Of a stretch of 12,231 nt of DNA, positions 7,230 through 12,231 are shown piece after piece. How positions within the stretch are numbered: the first letter of the stretch is position 1; each line of letters opens with the position of its first letter. The DNA is taken from the IMG/VR virus record IMGVR_UViG_2645727901_000013. The stretch is one strand, 5' to 3'. Below the pieces are notes generated by a model, which worked only from the letters and a program-made list of their open reading frames with translations, had not been told where the DNA came from and searched no databases. Source of the stretch: a virus. Its lineage: Duplodnaviria; Heunggongvirae; Uroviricota; Caudoviricetes. Position numbers and translations under genes: made by a program.

Positions 7230-7420
7230 GGACGCACCTCCGCCGTAGTTACGTATTTAACCGGGCTACCTTTCATTGAGATGGTTTCACACATCTCTGC
7301 CGCTTTCAGTTCCGCTGTTTTTCTGGATTTATAGCGACGGTGCCAGACAGATACATCCGTGCGAACTGATACATCGTTTCTGTATTCCGTAGTGGAGATG
7401 ATGATTTCGTAACTAATCAT
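7226..7420 (-). CDS. Hypothetical protein (64 aa)
   Basis: Track ORF; start overlaps the stop of the Rha-like gene (7417-7420). No recognisable motif. Confidence 0.45.
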   Translation of the reverse strand: MISYEIIISTTEYRNDVSVRTDVSVWHRRYKSRKTAELKAAEMCETISMKGSPVKYVTTAEVRP

Positions 7421-8265
7421 GGGCGAACCTCCTTGTCAGAACCATTCAGCCTGGAATCAACAAGTGCAGCGCCAAAAACAGCATCACCAACACGGTCGTA
7501 CAGTTTGCTAGCCAGCGGAGATTCAACGGCCTTAAGCATTGGATAAAGCTGGCTTGTCCAGATTTGATGGATTTCACGCAAATGCAGGTATACGCCTCTG
7601 GCGTTTCGTGCGACAGCTGACATATCAACCGCGTCAGCACCAGATAAATTCTTCTCCATCTGGTTAAAGGCGTTGATGTATGCCTCTTTGAACCGGGCTG
7701 CACGTTTGCCAGTAAAGCCCATAGCAAGGAACGCGAAGCCATCGCGGGTGATTTGATAGCAAGGTAGTTTGCGGCCTGTGCAATCGGTGTAATCACTGGG
7801 CTGAAAATTCAGCTCAGTGAATTCAACAGAGCACTCAAGCGTCTGGATTTTTTGAATAACGTTTTTGTGCTGCTTGCAGAAATATTCGGCAACGGCCAAA
7901 GAAGAGGTAACAGCCTTCCCATGGATAACATCAATTTTAGAGTGAGTTTGGGTAGGGGTGGTTGCCATAGTGACATCCTCATGTGCGAATTTTGAAAACT
8001 CACCACATGGGACGCCAATCACAGAGGTGGTGAGACGTACAGGGTTGGCGTAACCGGTCGCACATGACCCCGGCGCATCTTTCGATGCCCCTGCACGCCC
8101 CACCATAATTTGGATGTGAGGAAACGTGCGCAAAAAAACCGCTGAAGCGCGGTTATGCGCATGTGCGAATTTCAGGACGCCAATCCCGGCACCCGCTTTA
8201 TAAGGTGCGGAGACAGTGTAACGTCCCGAAATTGCAGAATCAATATTTGGTCTTGAAATGATCAT
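7417..8265 (-). CDS. Phage regulatory protein, Rha family (N-terminal start uncertain: 8265 or internal ATG at 7963)
   Basis: Central region GKAVTSSLAVAEYFCKQHKNVIQKIQTL…YQITRDGFAFLAMGFTGKRAARFKEAYINAFNQME matches the Rha-domain pattern as I recall it. The ATG at 7963-7961 (MATTPTQ…) has a good GAGGAT Shine-Dalgarno 7 nt upstream, whereas ATG 8265 has none. However, the frame is open from 8265 and contains an in-frame internal repeat, so the long form cannot be excluded. Confidence 0.7.
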   Translation of the reverse strand: MIISRPNIDSAISGRYTVSAPYKAGAGIGVLKFAHAHNRASAVFLRTFPHIQIMVGRAGASKDAPGSCATGYANPVRLTTSVIGVPCGEFSKFAHEDVTMATTPTQTHSKIDVIHGKAVTSSLAVAEYFCKQHKNVIQKIQTLECSVEFTELNFQPSDYTDCTGRKLPCYQITRDGFAFLAMGFTGKRAARFKEAYINAFNQMEKNLSGADAVDMSAVARNARGVYLHLREIHQIWTSQLYPMLKAVESPLASKLYDRVGDAVFGAALVDSRLNGSDKEVRP

Positions 8266-8374: not shown

Positions 8375-9081
8375 CATCGCTGCCAACCAATAACCTGAAA
8401 TAACCCCATTTTCGGGTGATACCAGCGAGTCCCTCGCGGTTCTGCTTCCTCCATAACCCGATAAAAAGCAGCCATAAACGGTTCCACAGCAACAATTGCG
8501 CGACGTGACAACAATCCGTCCGGCGTCATGAACTCATGTGTGTCTGTAGGAATTTGATAGGCGTTCACCAGATTGCGGCATTTATCATCTGACAAACCGG
8601 TTTTTGCTTTCAGTTGGCGATATCCGGCATAGCCCTCACGAATAGTGCCCTTTTTAATTTGCTCGACTGTTTCAGCAACGTGGCTGACTTTTTCTTCCAC
8701 CTGAGTGATCCGTTTCTGTTGGCGAACGGCTTCAAGAGCCATCGCGGCAACCATTTCGATTTCGCTCATTGGCTTACGGATCTGTTCTTCCAGTTCGCGC
8801 CAGCGATCTACCAGGCGAGCTGTGAATTCAGGACAGAGCTGTGCGACGACAATGATGCTGTCGCGCTTACCTCGTTCACCTTCGAATACATACGCGCTAG
8901 AAAATCGGCGAGGCCCAAGTGATTGTTTATTCTCAATTTCCACAGTCTGTGGAAATTGGATGATTCCCTTTTTAGCCAGTGTTTCAATAGTTCTCTTAAC
9001 ACTATCTGGTCGGCTTCCCACCAGCTCTGCGATCTCAACGCTGGTCATGGATGCTTTGCCGTTAAAAATTGCGGTGTTCAT
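8374..9081 (-). CDS. Phage regulatory protein, divergent Rha-like (cII-position gene)
   Basis: 235-aa ORF whose start overlaps the cro-like stop (9078-9081). N-terminal TSVEIAELVGSRPDSVKRTIETL…YVFEGERGKRDSIIVVAQL follows the same residue pattern as the Rha domain in the next gene (SSLAVAEYF..HKNVIQKIQTL…ITRDGFAFLAMG). Assignment by pattern comparison only. Confidence 0.55.
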   Translation of the reverse strand: MNTAIFNGKASMTSVEIAELVGSRPDSVKRTIETLAKKGIIQFPQTVEIENKQSLGPRRFSSAYVFEGERGKRDSIIVVAQLCPEFTARLVDRWRELEEQIRKPMSEIEMVAAMALEAVRQQKRITQVEEKVSHVAETVEQIKKGTIREGYAGYRQLKAKTGLSDDKCRNLVNAYQIPTDTHEFMTPDGLLSRRAIVAVEPFMAAFYRVMEEAEPRGTRWYHPKMGLFQVIGWQR

Positions 9082-9368
9082 TGTTTATCTCCTGCGTGTA
9101 TTCCATCCGCTCTGTGTGGTGAACTTGGATTTAGGCTTTTGCGTAACAAGTTAGGAATTCCATCTTCAGGGTGAGGATAAAGATCTGGCCTTAAGCCATG
9201 AGGCGTAACCTTCCATGCAACTACTTCACATACTCGTAAAACGAAACGAGCAGGAATTGTGCTTTTTGAAAACCACTGATTCACCGCTTGCGGCGTCACA
9301 CCAAGATTTCGCGCTATGGCATTTTGCGCAATTAATGCACGAAGTTTGTCGTAATCATTTCCTTCCAT
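9078..9368 (-). CDS. Cro-like HTH regulator (Cro/YdaS-type), first gene of the early rightward operon
   Basis: Divergent from the CI-like gene across a 133-bp AT-rich region. Contains ARNLGVTPQAVNQWFS, a Cro/CI-type HTH signature comparable to lambda Cro LGVYQSAINKAI. No strong SD at the 9368 start, so the exact start is uncertain. Confidence 0.7.
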   Translation of the reverse strand: MEGNDYDKLRALIAQNAIARNLGVTPQAVNQWFSKSTIPARFVLRVCEVVAWKVTPHGLRPDLYPHPEDGIPNLLRKSLNPSSPHRADGIHAGDKQ

Positions 9369-9501
9369 AACAAAGCACCAATATTAACTTTATAAATCAA
9401 GAATACATCAAGTTTAAATTAACATGCAAGTTACAAAAGGATCGAATACACTAAAATCAAGTAAAGATTTATCCTTGTAAAGAAACCCACAGGATTTGGT
9501 C
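9369..9501. promoter_or_regulatory. Immunity switch region (OR-like) between divergent cro-like and cI-like genes, with repeated ATCAAG-containing motifs
   Basis: Seen in sequence: AAATCAAG at 9394-9401 and 9454-9461, ATCAAGTTTAAATT at 9407-9420, ATCAAGTAAAGATT at 9456-9469, GAATAC at 9401-9406 and 9443-9448. Individual promoters and operator boundaries could not be resolved by eye. Confidence 0.5.
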
Positions 9502-10191
9502 ATGAAGAACGTCAAAAACACGGAAAATCGAATAGCCGCGATGCTGAAAGCAAAAGGATGGACTCAGGCTCAACTGGCCCGCAAGTTAGGTGTGAGTGCG
9601 CAATCAGTGCAGTACTGGACAACAGGAAAAACATTTCCACGGAGTGATAAGCTCGCGCATTTATCAGAGATTAGCGGTTATCCACAATCCTGGTTCTTAG
9701 GTGAAGACTCCTCACCAACCTTTTCCTCGCAAGAGAAACACCAGACAAGAACAGATAGCGTCGTATTTAATGTCCTTGATGTTGAGTTTAGTTGCGGTGA
9801 TGGAACTCATGTCCGTGGTGACTTGATAGATGTAGTGCGCTCAATAGAACTTGATCCTGAATATGCCCGACGTCTTGTTGGAAATCGGGCATTCAAAAAT
9901 ATAGAAATAGGTAACGCCAGAGGAGACAGTATGGCTCCCACAATCTCACCTGGCGACCTTCTTTTTCTTGATAAGACAGTAACTTATTTTGATGGCGATG
10001 GTATTTATGCATTTTGTTTTGATGGAGAATGCTACGTGAAAAGGCTTCAAAAAATTGGAAGCAAAATCATGGTGTTATCTGATAACCCCAATTATCAACC
10101 ATGGAGCATCGAAAAAGAGGGGTTAGCTCTGCTTTATATCCAGTCTAAAGTGATCTCATCAGTACCATTCAACATAAACAGATTTGGTTAG
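9502..10191 (+). CDS. CI-like prophage repressor: N-terminal XRE-type HTH plus C-terminal S24 (LexA-like) autopeptidase domain
   Basis: HTH: KGWTQAQLARKLGVSAQSVQYWTTGKTFP. S24 catalytic Ser in GDSMAPT and Lys in YVKRL; candidate Cys-Gly cleavage site in EFSCGDG (as in UmuD). ATG at 9502 has AGGAT 6 nt upstream; the track start at 9496 is a TTG. Followed by a strong terminator. Confidence 0.9.
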   Translation: MKNVKNTENRIAAMLKAKGWTQAQLARKLGVSAQSVQYWTTGKTFPRSDKLAHLSEISGYPQSWFLGEDSSPTFSSQEKHQTRTDSVVFNVLDVEFSCGDGTHVRGDLIDVVRSIELDPEYARRLVGNRAFKNIEIGNARGDSMAPTISPGDLLFLDKTVTYFDGDGIYAFCFDGECYVKRLQKIGSKIMVLSDNPNYQPWSIEKEGLALLYIQSKVISSVPFNINRFG

Positions 10192-10202
10192 TCTTTGATT
10201 TT

Positions 10203-10225
10203 AACGGGCTTTGCCCGTTTTTTTT
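10203..10225 (+). terminator. Rho-independent terminator downstream of cI-like gene
   Basis: Seen in sequence: AACGGGC (10203-10209), loop TTT, GCCCGTT (10213-10219), T-run of 8 (10218-10225), 12 nt after the cI stop. Confidence 0.8.
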
Positions 10226-10255
10226 CTGCCTGAAATATACGATATCAATTTTTTC

Positions 10256-10284
10256 TTGACAGCCTGTTTCCCAAAACATAATAT
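10256..10284 (+). promoter_or_regulatory. Near-consensus sigma70 promoter driving the accessory cassette downstream of cI
   Basis: Seen in sequence: TTGACA (10256-10261), 17-bp spacer, TAATAT (10279-10284). An ATCAAGTTATAATT-like motif (reverse orientation, 10294-10307) just downstream resembles the OR motif at 9407-9420, so repressor control is possible (inference). Confidence 0.55.
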
Positions 10285-10337
10285 CGCACCATCAATTATA
10301 ACTTGATTTGATTCAATTTAAAATTGTTGGCGGATAT

Positions 10338-10886
10338 ATGAAGACACTAAAAGCAACTCCAGAAACAACTAATTTTATCAACTGCGGCTGTGTTACGCTT
10401 AAGGGCTTAGAACTTGATTCCTTTGCATTAAATATTGCAAATTTGCTAAGTGCTGTACGCACATTCCATCTTCTGGATTGTGCTCGCTCAAAGGAACTGG
10501 GCATTGAGGTAATGGAATTTATCCATGAATATGCTCTATCTGCTGCTTCTCCTGCACAACAAAAACAATCCTTCCCTGAAAGCTGGCTGGTTAACCTTCG
10601 CACCCAACGCGAAGCCTGCGGCTTAACAACCGCCGAACTCGCCAGGCTGCTCGATCTCGATGAAGAAATTATCATCCAGTGGGAGAGCGGAGAGTATGAA
10701 CCAACTATCAGTATGCTTATCCCACTGGCAAATATTCTTGGCTGCGATCCGATGTGCCTGTTAACTGGTGAGGTTACTCCTCCGGAGCAACCAAAAAGTG
10801 AGGAGCAGCAACACCATGACGCATCTCAACAAGTTTGCCCCTTATCTCGCGAAGCTCTTCTGCGGAAGAACCAATACCAATGGTGA
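10338..10886 (+). CDS. Two-domain protein: unknown N-terminal domain plus C-terminal XRE-family HTH
   Basis: C-terminal LRTQREACGLTTAELARLLDLDEEIIIQWESGEYEPTISMLIPLANILGCDPMCLLTGE is a textbook Cro/CI-type HTH_3 segment. I prefer ATG 10338 over the track's TTG at 10308. The last ~35 codons overlap two other ORFs, so the 3' end is uncertain. N-terminal ~95 aa unassigned. Confidence 0.6.
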   Translation: MKTLKATPETTNFINCGCVTLKGLELDSFALNIANLLSAVRTFHLLDCARSKELGIEVMEFIHEYALSAASPAQQKQSFPESWLVNLRTQREACGLTTAELARLLDLDEEIIIQWESGEYEPTISMLIPLANILGCDPMCLLTGEVTPPEQPKSEEQQHHDASQQVCPLSREALLRKNQYQW

Positions 10887-11014
10887 CATAATCGCCGCTT
10901 CGCCCTTCAAGGTACATGCGAACATTTTTATCAATCATTGCGGAAACAGTCTCAATATGAAAACACTTCTGAGACTCGCTATATAGCAGAACATATAAGT
11001 CAGCTGAGGAAGCC

Positions 11015-11380
11015 ATGAAAAAGTTCGAAAACATAACTGTTCTCCATGTTGATGACTTTGATTATACAAACCCGGAACTTCTCCCGGAGGTTGTAAAGGC
11101 AATGGATGTTGCCGATATAGTGATTAGAGAAAAGAGAATTGTCAAAAACAGGCTCGCATGCACTTCAGGAGCAATGACAGAAACAACCTCACAGCAAGAT
11201 AATTACGAAGGCATTTGTCTGGAGCCTGATTCATTTGCGGTAAATGTTTATCATTTATTGCATGCAACACAGGTATTACATATGTCCAGTAATCACGAAA
11301 CGAAAACACTCGGCAGCGAAATTCTGAGTTTTGCATGTGAGTATACAAAAGCTGCTGCCGAAAAAGAATTAGCGCAATAA
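11015..11380 (+). CDS. Hypothetical acidic protein (121 aa)
   Basis: ATG at 11015 preceded by GAGGAAG with about 4-nt spacing; frame open for 121 codons in an AT-rich region. No recognisable motif. Confidence 0.55.
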   Translation: MKKFENITVLHVDDFDYTNPELLPEVVKAMDVADIVIREKRIVKNRLACTSGAMTETTSQQDNYEGICLEPDSFAVNVYHLLHATQVLHMSSNHETKTLGSEILSFACEYTKAAAEKELAQ

Positions 11381-11458
11381 CAACAAATATGCCCTGAACG
11401 TTTATTGCGGTTTTATCGCCGGGGATTGTTACAACCTTAATCCACAGGAGGCTTTATT

Positions 11459-11572
11459 GTGACTTTTATAAAGAATATGGCATCACACAAGACCGCCTGC
11501 CTTATTGCACAATACGGTGAAAATTACATGCATATTGCCTGCTTATTTCTGCGTAAAGCATACGGGAGATAA
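11459..11572 (+). CDS. Candidate small ORF (37 aa, GTG start), not in the supplied track
   Basis: Seen in sequence: consensus AGGAGG (11446-11451), 7-nt spacer, GTG at 11459; translation (V/M)TFIKNMASHKTACLIAQYGENYMHIACLFLRKAYGR; TAA at 11570-11572, 2 nt before the next gene's ATG at 11575. Could be a small protein or leader peptide. Confidence 0.3.
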   Translation: MTFIKNMASHKTACLIAQYGENYMHIACLFLRKAYGR

Positions 11573-11768: not shown

Positions 11769-12143
11769 ATGCAATACGATGAATTCCAGGCTGAAGCAAC
11801 AGCCAATGGTATACGAACTGGCAGTATGACGATTGATTATCACGACGCCATACGTCGTCTGGATGCCGGAGAATTCGATACTCCTAATGTGCGAGGTTTA
11901 CGTATCCTTCAGTGTCTGGCGCAAGCCGACGAAGCAGGATTACTGGGTAAACTTCCGGTTGAGATGAAGGTTGCTCAGTGGCGATGGTTGTATGTGACGA
12001 CATTCATCAACGAAGAAGAAGACAAGAACGGCACAATTGATATCCTGAATGAACACGGAACAACTGAACACGCCGTGGTATATAACGGGATGTATGGGTT
12101 TATGACGATATATCCCGGCCCCATTCGATTTGCCTTACGGTGA
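11769..12143 (+). CDS. Hypothetical protein (124 codons as read); 3' end interrupted by the IS1 insertion, so likely truncated
   Basis: ATG at 11769 with GAGGAA upstream. The final codon CGG (12138-12140) and the TGA stop (12141-12143) are built from the first bases of the IS1 terminus (GGTGATG…), so the native C-terminus is unknown. Confidence 0.5.
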   Translation: MQYDEFQAEATANGIRTGSMTIDYHDAIRRLDAGEFDTPNVRGLRILQCLAQADEAGLLGKLPVEMKVAQWRWLYVTTFINEEEDKNGTIDILNEHGTTEHAVVYNGMYGFMTIYPGPIRFALR

Positions 12144-12231
12144 TGCTGCCAACTTACTGATTTAGTGTATGATGGTGTTTTTGAGGTGCTCCAGTGGCTT
12201 CTGTTTCTATCAGCTGTCCCTCCTGTTCAGC
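12139..12231 (+). mobile_element. IS1 insertion sequence, left (insA-proximal) terminus; element continues beyond the window
   Basis: 12139-12231 reads GGTGATGCTGCCAACTTACTGATTTAGTGTATGATGGTGTTTTTGAGGTGCTCCAGTGGCTTCTGTTTCTATCAGCTGTCCCTCCTGTTCAGC, which matches the IS1 left end (terminal inverted repeat GGTGATGCTGCCAACTTACTGAT and start of insA) as I recall it. Recognition from memory; no alignment run. Confidence 0.85.
12194..12231 (+). CDS. insA: IS1 InsA, N-terminal fragment (continues beyond the window)
   Basis: GTG at 12194 followed by GCT TCT GTT TCT ATC AGC TGT CCC TCC TGT TCA = (M)ASVSISCPSCS, the known InsA N-terminus with its CxxC zinc-finger start. Confidence 0.8.
   Translation, partial: MASVSISCPSCS

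Follow-up and report, generated by a model that had tools for sequence, protein, structure and literature searches.

At the 3′ end of a helix-turn-helix (HTH) regulator gene in IMG/VR virus record IMGVR_UViG_2645727901_000013, a Caudoviricetes sequence of 12,231 nucleotides (nt) that we refer to in full as the window, three open reading frames (ORFs) overlap one another. The HTH gene runs convergently into a minus-strand ORF, here called the small gene, with which it shares 113 nt (∼37 codons), and a shorter plus-strand ORF lies across the same region. The start of the small gene overlaps, divergently, the first 20 nt of an L08-like gene. A preliminary description of this region had placed all three ORFs, the GGAGA spacing, the GTGAGGAG motif and the codon boundaries shared by two of the frames; an ORF listing and reading of the sequence confirmed these placements. 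The features concerned are as follows (lengths in amino acids, aa).

10338-10886, plus strand: XRE-family HTH gene, 182 aa (HTH_3; phrog_4836, phrog_4739)
10773-10883, plus strand: HTH tail, residues 146-182, reading through the antisense of the small gene (overlap 10774-10886)
10774-11034, minus strand: small gene, 86 aa, phrog_6104 family; ATG at 11034, with GGAGA 6 nt before the ATG
10816-10986, plus strand: plus ORF, 56 aa, from ATG 10816 to the stop at 10986; GTGAGGAG at 10798-10805; frame open from GTG 10768
11015-11380, plus strand: L08-like gene, 121 aa, phrog_5451 (E = 4e-83); N-terminal domain with ADIVI-x4-IVKNR, and a C-terminal hairpin

Taken modulo 3, positions 10774 and 10816 both give 1, which puts the small gene and the plus ORF on common codon boundaries, and the HTH frame gives 0.

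Selection on the overlapping frames

The product of the minus ORF matched phrog_6104 (E = 1.4e-49; residues 7-86 against profile positions 1-80 of 80), and a protein search returned 18 clusters from Escherichia, Salmonella and Citrobacter with 58-97% identity, all of them hypothetical proteins. Across these three genera the length of the homologues is kept at 82-90 aa. The comparison at the nucleotide level drew on 80 loci from viral contigs, several annotated records and five divergent contigs of enteric origin (individual loci are given L numbers below). A minus ORF of 86-90 aa was present in 86 of the 91 loci having a match, and it was broken only by recombination in the type B loci described below and in three single cases. 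A profile scan of genome contigs with the family alignment gave no confirmed loci.

The small gene showed strong purifying selection. In comparisons with six divergent lineages, the ratio of nonsynonymous to synonymous substitution rates (dN/dS) over codons 1-49 was 0.32 for the least diverged lineage and 0.08-0.19 for the other five, and the corresponding ratio of uncorrected proportions of differences (pN/pS) over codons 17-73 was 0.19-0.35 against divergent lineages. When the same nucleotides were read in the frame of the HTH tail, pN/pS was 0.6-1.8, and in the frame of the plus ORF it was 1.0-2.2. These comparisons indicate that, among the overlapping frames, only the minus frame 10774-11034 is under protein-level selection. 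Conservation of the long HTH frame alone, which the preliminary description had named beforehand as the finding that would speak against an overlapping gene, was not seen: homologues conserve the minus frame alone and neither the HTH tail nor the plus ORF.

AlphaFold2 (AF2) modelled the small protein with a mean predicted local distance difference test (pLDDT) score of 79, rising above 90 for residues 11-72 (10819-11004), which form a predicted beta-beta-alpha-beta-alpha core. Together, the homologues, the selection measures and the predicted fold place the minus ORF well beyond chance and indicate a genuine protein-coding gene of 86 aa. The convergent small gene, one of several readings offered in the preliminary description, is therefore the one borne out by conservation of the minus ORF. 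Its likely start is Met1 (11034), preferred because Met7 is replaced in some lineages; the Shine-Dalgarno sequence and this ATG are conserved. Met7 (ATG 11016), the start used in PHROGs and by some gene callers, was rejected, since this residue is Ile in Salmonella and Thr in L071 (E. coli).

The HTH tail and the convergent overlap

To see how far the HTH frame would stay open by chance, we redrew the codons of the minus gene among their synonyms, leaving the encoded protein unchanged. An overlap of at least 113 nt was obtained with P = 0.63 in the window, and overlaps at least as long as those observed with P = 0.32-1.0 for five other lineages. For the HTH frame to meet a stop, a small-gene codon with TT, CT or TC as its last two bases must precede one that starts with A, and the C-terminal third of the small protein has few residue pairs able to give such antisense stops. 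In the window, the TGA stop of the HTH gene faces the conserved Val-Thr of DYVT. Depending on the locus, the overlap is 20, 38, 59, 101, 107, 110, 113 or 119 nt long, and synonymous divergence of the small gene shows no reduction within it. AF2 gave the tail (residues 146-182) a pLDDT of 31-55. From the pN/pS values, the unreduced synonymous change, the variable overlap, the resampling and the predicted disorder, the HTH tail appears to be a passive, disordered read-through without protein-level selection.

The main competitor to this reading of the tail is true dual coding, in which the tail would be a selected functional extension and the 113-nt overlap would persist as a need of both proteins. 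In line with this, five divergent lineages (the window, L088/L089, L090, L091 and L092) have overlaps of 101-119 nt, and the tails are without exception hydrophilic and rich in Q, P, H and E. However, overlaps of this length are what the small-protein sequence alone predicts (P = 0.3-0.8), naturally shortened tails (20, 38 and 59 nt of overlap) coexist with intact small genes, and in type B and C loci the same HTH domain ends 8-9 residues after LLTG. Purifying selection on both frames, which dual coding calls for, was not found; it was detected on the minus frame only. With the tail-frame pN/pS and the low tail pLDDT, these results make dual coding improbable.

A variable slot between the HTH and L08-like genes

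Homology to related loci breaks at 10769-10771, 10928 and 11014. The loci fall into the following arrangements.

Type A (window): small gene present, its stop 2-3 codons past LLTGE; HTH frame continues
Type B (phiP27, L004): HTH protein ends LLTGETAAKDICA, followed by a 516-bp segment with other ORFs; small ORF cut to 36-50 aa
Type C (L006): HTH protein ends LLTGKPTAGDTCA; small gene missing
ASU11: HTH protein with two HTH domains; 20-nt overlap with an intact small gene

Homology of the type B and C HTH genes with the window stops at 10769-10771. The alignments thereby show a slot filled by the small gene in type A and by another minus-strand ORF in type B, and left empty in type C, and they show that the HTH gene of type A evidently no longer has its original short C-terminus or stop codon. 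Where the small gene is missing, in type C, the sequence GCATGA contains both the stop of the HTH gene and the start of L08 (L006 1697-1703), as is typical of genes whose translation is coupled. The convergent overlap of the HTH gene with the small gene is an unremarkable consequence of modular recombination at a real gene that had been overlooked.

In type B the slot (L004 2098-2496; phiP27, L003 3494-3673) carries a minus-strand ORF, L09, of 75 aa (60 aa as annotated in phiP27) that looks coiled-coil-like by eye. An 80-aa plus-strand ORF starts there at the HTH stop codon and overlaps L09 by ∼70 nt.

The HTH protein and its relationship to its neighbours

The XRE helix-turn-helix recognised in the preliminary description was supported by a Pfam match to HTH_3 (PF01381) at residues 87-138, which scored 40.4 bits against a cut-off of 23 (E = 3e-10), and AF2 placed five helices at residues 82-143 (10581-10766) as the HTH domain. 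The N-terminal domain had been left unassigned and can now be described as a helical hairpin (domain residues 24-72, 10407-10553; AF2 hairpin 26-70, pLDDT ∼84). It is homologous to the C-terminus of the L08-like protein: the segment encoded by 10407-10547 aligns with L08 residues 69-115 (11219-11359) at 43% identity over 47 aa (BLASTP, E = 9e-10), and the two proteins have common matches to phrog_4587 and phrog_5451. This homology suggests that the hairpin may be a dimerisation or partner-binding module shared by the HTH and L08-like proteins. Among phages, hairpin alleles are shuffled between the two genes. We also considered co-variation of each phage's HTH N-terminal hairpin with its own L08 C-terminal hairpin; this fails, as the ASU11 HTH hairpin matches a Salmonella-type L08 hairpin. 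The HTH homologues are 142-265 aa long, with varied hairpin alleles and one or two HTH domains, and in all of them the last HTH domain ends in PLANxLxCDPMWLLTG, which is the point of module exchange.

The regulator resembles DicA and other XRE-type prophage repressors in being an HTH_3 protein beside an immunity switch. It differs from them in its N-terminal hairpin, its modular architecture of one or two HTH domains and the separate S24-type cI beside it. The DicA model NF007257 matched only the HTH region (residues 87-159) with 34.9 bits, below its cut-off of 101, and the RstR model likewise stayed far under its cut-off. The label 'lambda CII-like' attached to phrog_4836 is an annotation rather than a test; a Pfam scan at E ≤ 0.1 gave generic HTH families and no Phage_CII match, and the CII family was absent from the precomputed Pfam domains of 120 HTH homologues.

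The preliminary description had also proposed an antitoxin-like HTH protein followed by a small overlapping partner. The plus ORF that would be this partner is not conserved, and the real small gene is convergent. Recast with the small protein as partner, the proposal is that the two act directly on each other as a toxin-antitoxin-like or regulator-effector pair. Adjacency of the two genes in all enteric loci is in keeping with such a pair, as are the weak resemblance of the HTH domain to HipB-, MqsA- and DicA-type models and a remote family member, P0047, that joins the small domain to an XRE HTH. Nevertheless, the HipB- and MqsA-type matches reached just 20-23 bits against cut-offs of 62-72, PADLOC returned generic HTH matches only, and the convergent genes are not co-transcribed. 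They also occur apart: types B and C have the HTH gene without the small gene, and L093, L097, L099 and L101 have the small gene without an HTH neighbour. The conserved partner of the small gene is instead the L08-like gene, and we regard a direct pairing with the HTH protein as slightly less credible than dual coding.

A recurrent divergent pair with a candidate embedded promoter

In distant metagenomic phages (L095/L096 and L102) we found small proteins ∼30% identical to that of the window, encoded by genes counter-oriented in a leftward operon near a repressor-cro switch. The divergent neighbour in these phages is a protein of 60-62 aa homologous to the L08 N-terminal domain (pairwise E = 2e-6 and 3e-5), and L08 and these neighbours have the motif ADIVI-x4-[IV]VKNR in common. 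At the level of sequence, the small gene and the L08-like gene are thus shown to form a divergent pair that recurs in two distant phage groups, a pairing that is new here.

Within L08 codons 35-45 lies a candidate minus-strand promoter for the small gene, with a −35 TTGACA at 11145-11140, a 17-nt spacer and a −10 CACTAT at 11122-11117. The Ile-Val and Val-Lys codons of the L08 motif read on the small-gene strand as the −10 and −35 elements, respectively, exactly 17 nt apart. The hexamers in each lineage are as follows.

Window, L083, L092, L091 and L089 (five enteric lineages): −35 TTGACA, −10 CACTAT
Citrobacter (L090): −35 TTGATA, −10 TACGAT
L095: −35 TTGACG, −10 CACAAT
L102: −35 TTGACT, −10 CACAAT

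The third base of Val43, which is synonymous and gives the G of TTG, is C in all eight lineages, and four of the five spacer codons differ synonymously between L095 and L102. Transcription from this site would start near 11110 and yield a leader of ∼75 nt antisense to the ribosome-binding site and start codon of L08. The small gene is thus a candidate for independent transcription from an embedded sigma-70-like promoter. As types B and C retain the promoter-like sequence, the promoter may belong to L08 and drive whichever cargo occupies the slot.

Two further elements on the minus strand were set aside. A perfect candidate −10, TATAAT at 11066-11061, lacks a usable −35, and divergent lineages do not conserve it. 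Nor do they conserve a terminator-like hairpin in the predicted leader (11088-11071; TCCGGGAGAAGTTCCGGG, then TTTGTATAAT), and the number of such sites equals the shuffle expectation.

Transcription across the locus

The region upstream of the HTH gene contains the following features.

9078-9368, minus strand: Cro/YdaS-like gene, facing the cI-like gene
9496-10191, plus strand: S24-type cI-like repressor gene, separate from the HTH gene
10203-10226, plus strand: intrinsic-terminator-like hairpin and T-run, a putative end of the cI-like gene (7-bp stem, 5 GC pairs, then TTTTTTTCT)
10256-10284, plus strand: sigma-70-like promoter TTGACA-17-TAATAT (10/12 consensus matches), between the cI terminator and the HTH gene
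10291-10329: operator-like repeats of ACTTGAT/ATCAAGT type, inverted-repeat pairs I1-I3 (71-87% complementary)

Repeats of the same type occur in the cro-cI intergenic region (9406-9472), and we infer that they are cI operators. The promoter-like site at 10256-10284 is a candidate early-left (PL-like) promoter for the HTH gene. Given the terminator, the promoter-like site and the operator-like repeats upstream, the HTH gene would be the first gene of a cI-controlled early-left operon. A terminator scan found no plus-strand terminator between the HTH gene and the L08-like gene; early-left transcription should therefore traverse the small-gene antisense.

We consider it probable that the locus as a whole is explained by a real counter-oriented small gene in a variable slot, a passive HTH tail, a shadow ORF and an embedded promoter. 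The small gene would be a self-transcribed, counter-oriented accessory gene, transcribed alone from TTGACA-17-CACTAT within the L08 coding sequence. Its mRNA would lie antisense both to the start of L08 translation and to the HTH mRNA at its 3′ end, and transcription from 10256-10284 would run head-on through it. Owing to this head-on transcription, expression of the small gene would be expected in lysogeny, when the early-left promoter is repressed, and would weaken once the prophage is induced, as for a moron in counter-orientation. L08 and the HTH gene might in turn be subject to an antisense effect.

Several observations weigh against this explanation. The promoter hexamers coincide with a conserved L08 motif (IVI...VKNR), so that few synonymous positions separate the two constraints; the −10 CACTAT matches three of six consensus positions and was not listed by a generic promoter scan; and type C keeps the promoter-like sequence without any cargo gene. 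The terminator scan found no minus-strand terminator below 10774, where a 7-bp hairpin at the small-gene stop codon has no U-tract. Furthermore, the lineages compared are not fully independent, and the long overlaps (101-119 nt) in most of the divergent lineages could reflect weak, undetected selection on the tail.

A more elaborate version of this explanation would treat the small gene and L08 as a switch module of two divergent genes with which the early-left operon begins. The embedded promoter would drive an antisense, protein-coding counter-transcript, L08 and the HTH protein would have a common dimerisation hairpin, and the resulting three-gene, mutually exclusive circuit would tune lysis-lysogeny or exclusion, with the small protein founding a regulator or exclusion family of ∼390 clusters on mobile elements. 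We regard this version as unlikely, though less so than any of the rival accounts considered here.

If, alternatively, the minus ORF is not translated, the conserved element could be an antisense RNA started inside L08, with the ORF incidental. Persistence of the promoter-like sequence in type C loci that lack the ORF fits this idea, and so does the truncation of the ORF to 36-50 aa in type B. It is contradicted by purifying selection specific to the minus frame, by the confident fold prediction, by protein-level homologues down to ∼30% identity in unrelated contexts and by the conserved Shine-Dalgarno sequence and ATG, and we consider it very improbable.

The plus ORF

The preliminary description had noted that, of the two ORFs with shared codon boundaries, one was probably a shadow of the other, and the pN/pS values (1.0-2.2 for the plus ORF vs 0.19-0.35 for the minus ORF) identify the plus ORF as that shadow. 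The open length of its frame varies from 90 to 237 nt across loci, the ORF is absent from ASU11, and it has no Pfam or PHROG family match. In the resampling, a 56-aa ATG-initiated ORF arose in this frame with P = 0.11. Since the plus-strand overlaps are no longer than predicted, they can be attributed to the protein sequence of the minus gene alone, and the plus ORF is best described as a same-boundary shadow of the minus gene rather than a gene.

P0170 (215 aa, from one E. coli genome) is an HTH protein fused to the shadow frame, and this fusion looks like the result of a 1-nt deletion, an illustration of the fragility of these frames. The frameshift-dependent arrangement suggested earlier, in which programmed frameshifting would join the HTH frame to the plus ORF 10816-10986 to give a longer fusion, has in its favour that P0170 carries exactly such a fusion and that the GTGAGGAG motif and an A-run lie just upstream of the plus ORF, yet it is hardly credible given that the plus frame is not conserved as a protein, is closed early (open for 90 or 93 nt) in several lineages and, by eye and with no formal scan, has no zero-frame X_XXY_YYZ heptamer in 10785-10816. 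The overlap that prompted this analysis is thus neither a dual-coding nor a frameshift device.

The small-protein family

A profile search of 1.84 billion representatives returned 390 relatives of the small protein at E ≤ 1e-3, most of them 60-100 aa long. The family motif is [YWF]V[LV]L[YW]S.SQ..FH[IV]E...N...DY, with Ser19 fully and Gln22, His26 and Tyr49 almost fully conserved. Searches of Pfam, NCBIfam, PADLOC and PDB sequences gave no match to the small protein, and PADLOC and NCBIfam likewise gave no model for the L08-like protein. GIY-YIG and MbtH-like folds were its best structural neighbours in the case of the small protein, but assignment to either, judged by a significant structural match together with the catalytic or signature motif, was not supported. 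A literature search found nothing on these genes; it covered phiP27 L09/L10, the family motif, the PHROG identifiers and lysogeny modules of Stx phages. This work defines an uncharacterised family of ∼390 clusters that has no Pfam entry or solved structure.

Remote homologues (down to ∼30% identity) occur in unrelated contexts, as listed here.

L097/L098: after dnaB, co-directional
L093: in a Vibrio region rich in insertion sequences (IS)
L099: in a Salmonella island
L101: counter-oriented within a tra operon
L103: near an integrase

Counter-orientation recurs in the distant relatives L095/L096, L102 and L101. From its distribution, the family appears to behave as accessory cargo of mobile elements, recurring as counter-oriented cargo in phage early operons and on other mobile elements. 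In P0047 (165 aa), the small-protein domain at residues 17-86 is fused to a C-terminal XRE HTH, a possible sign that the domain is functionally connected with HTH regulators. The main interest of the locus lies in the family itself, its divergent pairing with the L08-like gene and the promoter that apparently sits within L08 codons.

Comparison with known arrangements and annotation

Morons are reportedly accessory genes of lambdoid phages that are transcribed on their own and sit as insertions between conserved genes. Like a moron, the small gene is found in some loci and not in others while the flanks remain homologous (types A, B and C), is oriented counter to the operon, has a candidate promoter-like element and presumably has a function unrelated to those of the flanking genes. 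Unlike a moron, it has no terminator or intergenic space of its own, its candidate promoter lies inside a neighbouring ORF, both its ends overlap neighbours, and its pairing with the L08-like gene is conserved in distant phages, whereas free-standing morons have no such partner.

In lambda, OOP RNA is a convergent transcript that overlaps the 3′ end of the cII regulator mRNA. Here, too, a short counter-transcript would cover the 3′ portion of the mRNA for a regulator where an early operon begins, offering a possible route for antisense/RNase III control and transcriptional interference. However, this counter-transcript would carry the coding sequence of a conserved protein, and the HTH protein, for which the Pfam scans gave no Phage_CII match, is no homologue of cII.

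Spurious antisense ORFs opposite real genes are a general phenomenon of annotation. The plus ORF is of this kind, sharing codon boundaries with the small gene and remaining open because the sense codons TTA, CTA and TCA are avoided, and the HTH tail is open because few residue pairs of the small protein can create antisense stops. In contrast to the usual case the error is reversed: the RefSeq records listed annotate the passive HTH extension and suppress the real small gene, the HTH gene being the only annotated feature under the small-gene match. This omission is likely explained by the HTH ORF reading through the small gene. The full small gene is nonetheless present in 151 of 5426 complete E. 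coli genomes (∼3%), including ST131 and O55:H7 strains. In the RefSeq record of RM12579 (L001 3975-4181, equivalent to window 11174-11380), L08 is annotated from an internal Met as a protein of 68 aa; the full 121-aa ORF is conserved across genera, and the 287-bp 'empty' gap in RefSeq holds the small gene. Both the C-terminus annotated for the HTH protein and the shortened L08 call probably mislead.

Other features of the window

Positions 10200-11400 are 99.9% identical to E. coli O55:H7 RM12579 and 99.4% identical to phage PhiR49_2. The setting is the immunity and early region of an E. coli prophage of the phiP27-like lambdoid kind, where its early-left operon would begin. A search of 10200-11500 against Rfam matched no known RNA family.

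The last ∼95 bases of the window (12135-12231) are the end of an IS1, with 100% identity to IS1A copies on thousands of plasmids. This insertion cuts the gene at 11769-12143 to 124 aa, compared with 193 aa in the RM12579 prophage. Elsewhere, Rfam identified a C4 antisense RNA (75 bits; 8023-8110, minus strand) and isrK (62 bits; 8132-8208, minus strand), both within the 5′ third of a long 'Rha family' ORF at 7417-8265. This third of the ORF is probably a non-coding leader, and the locus looks like a C4-controlled antirepressor of the P1/P7 type.

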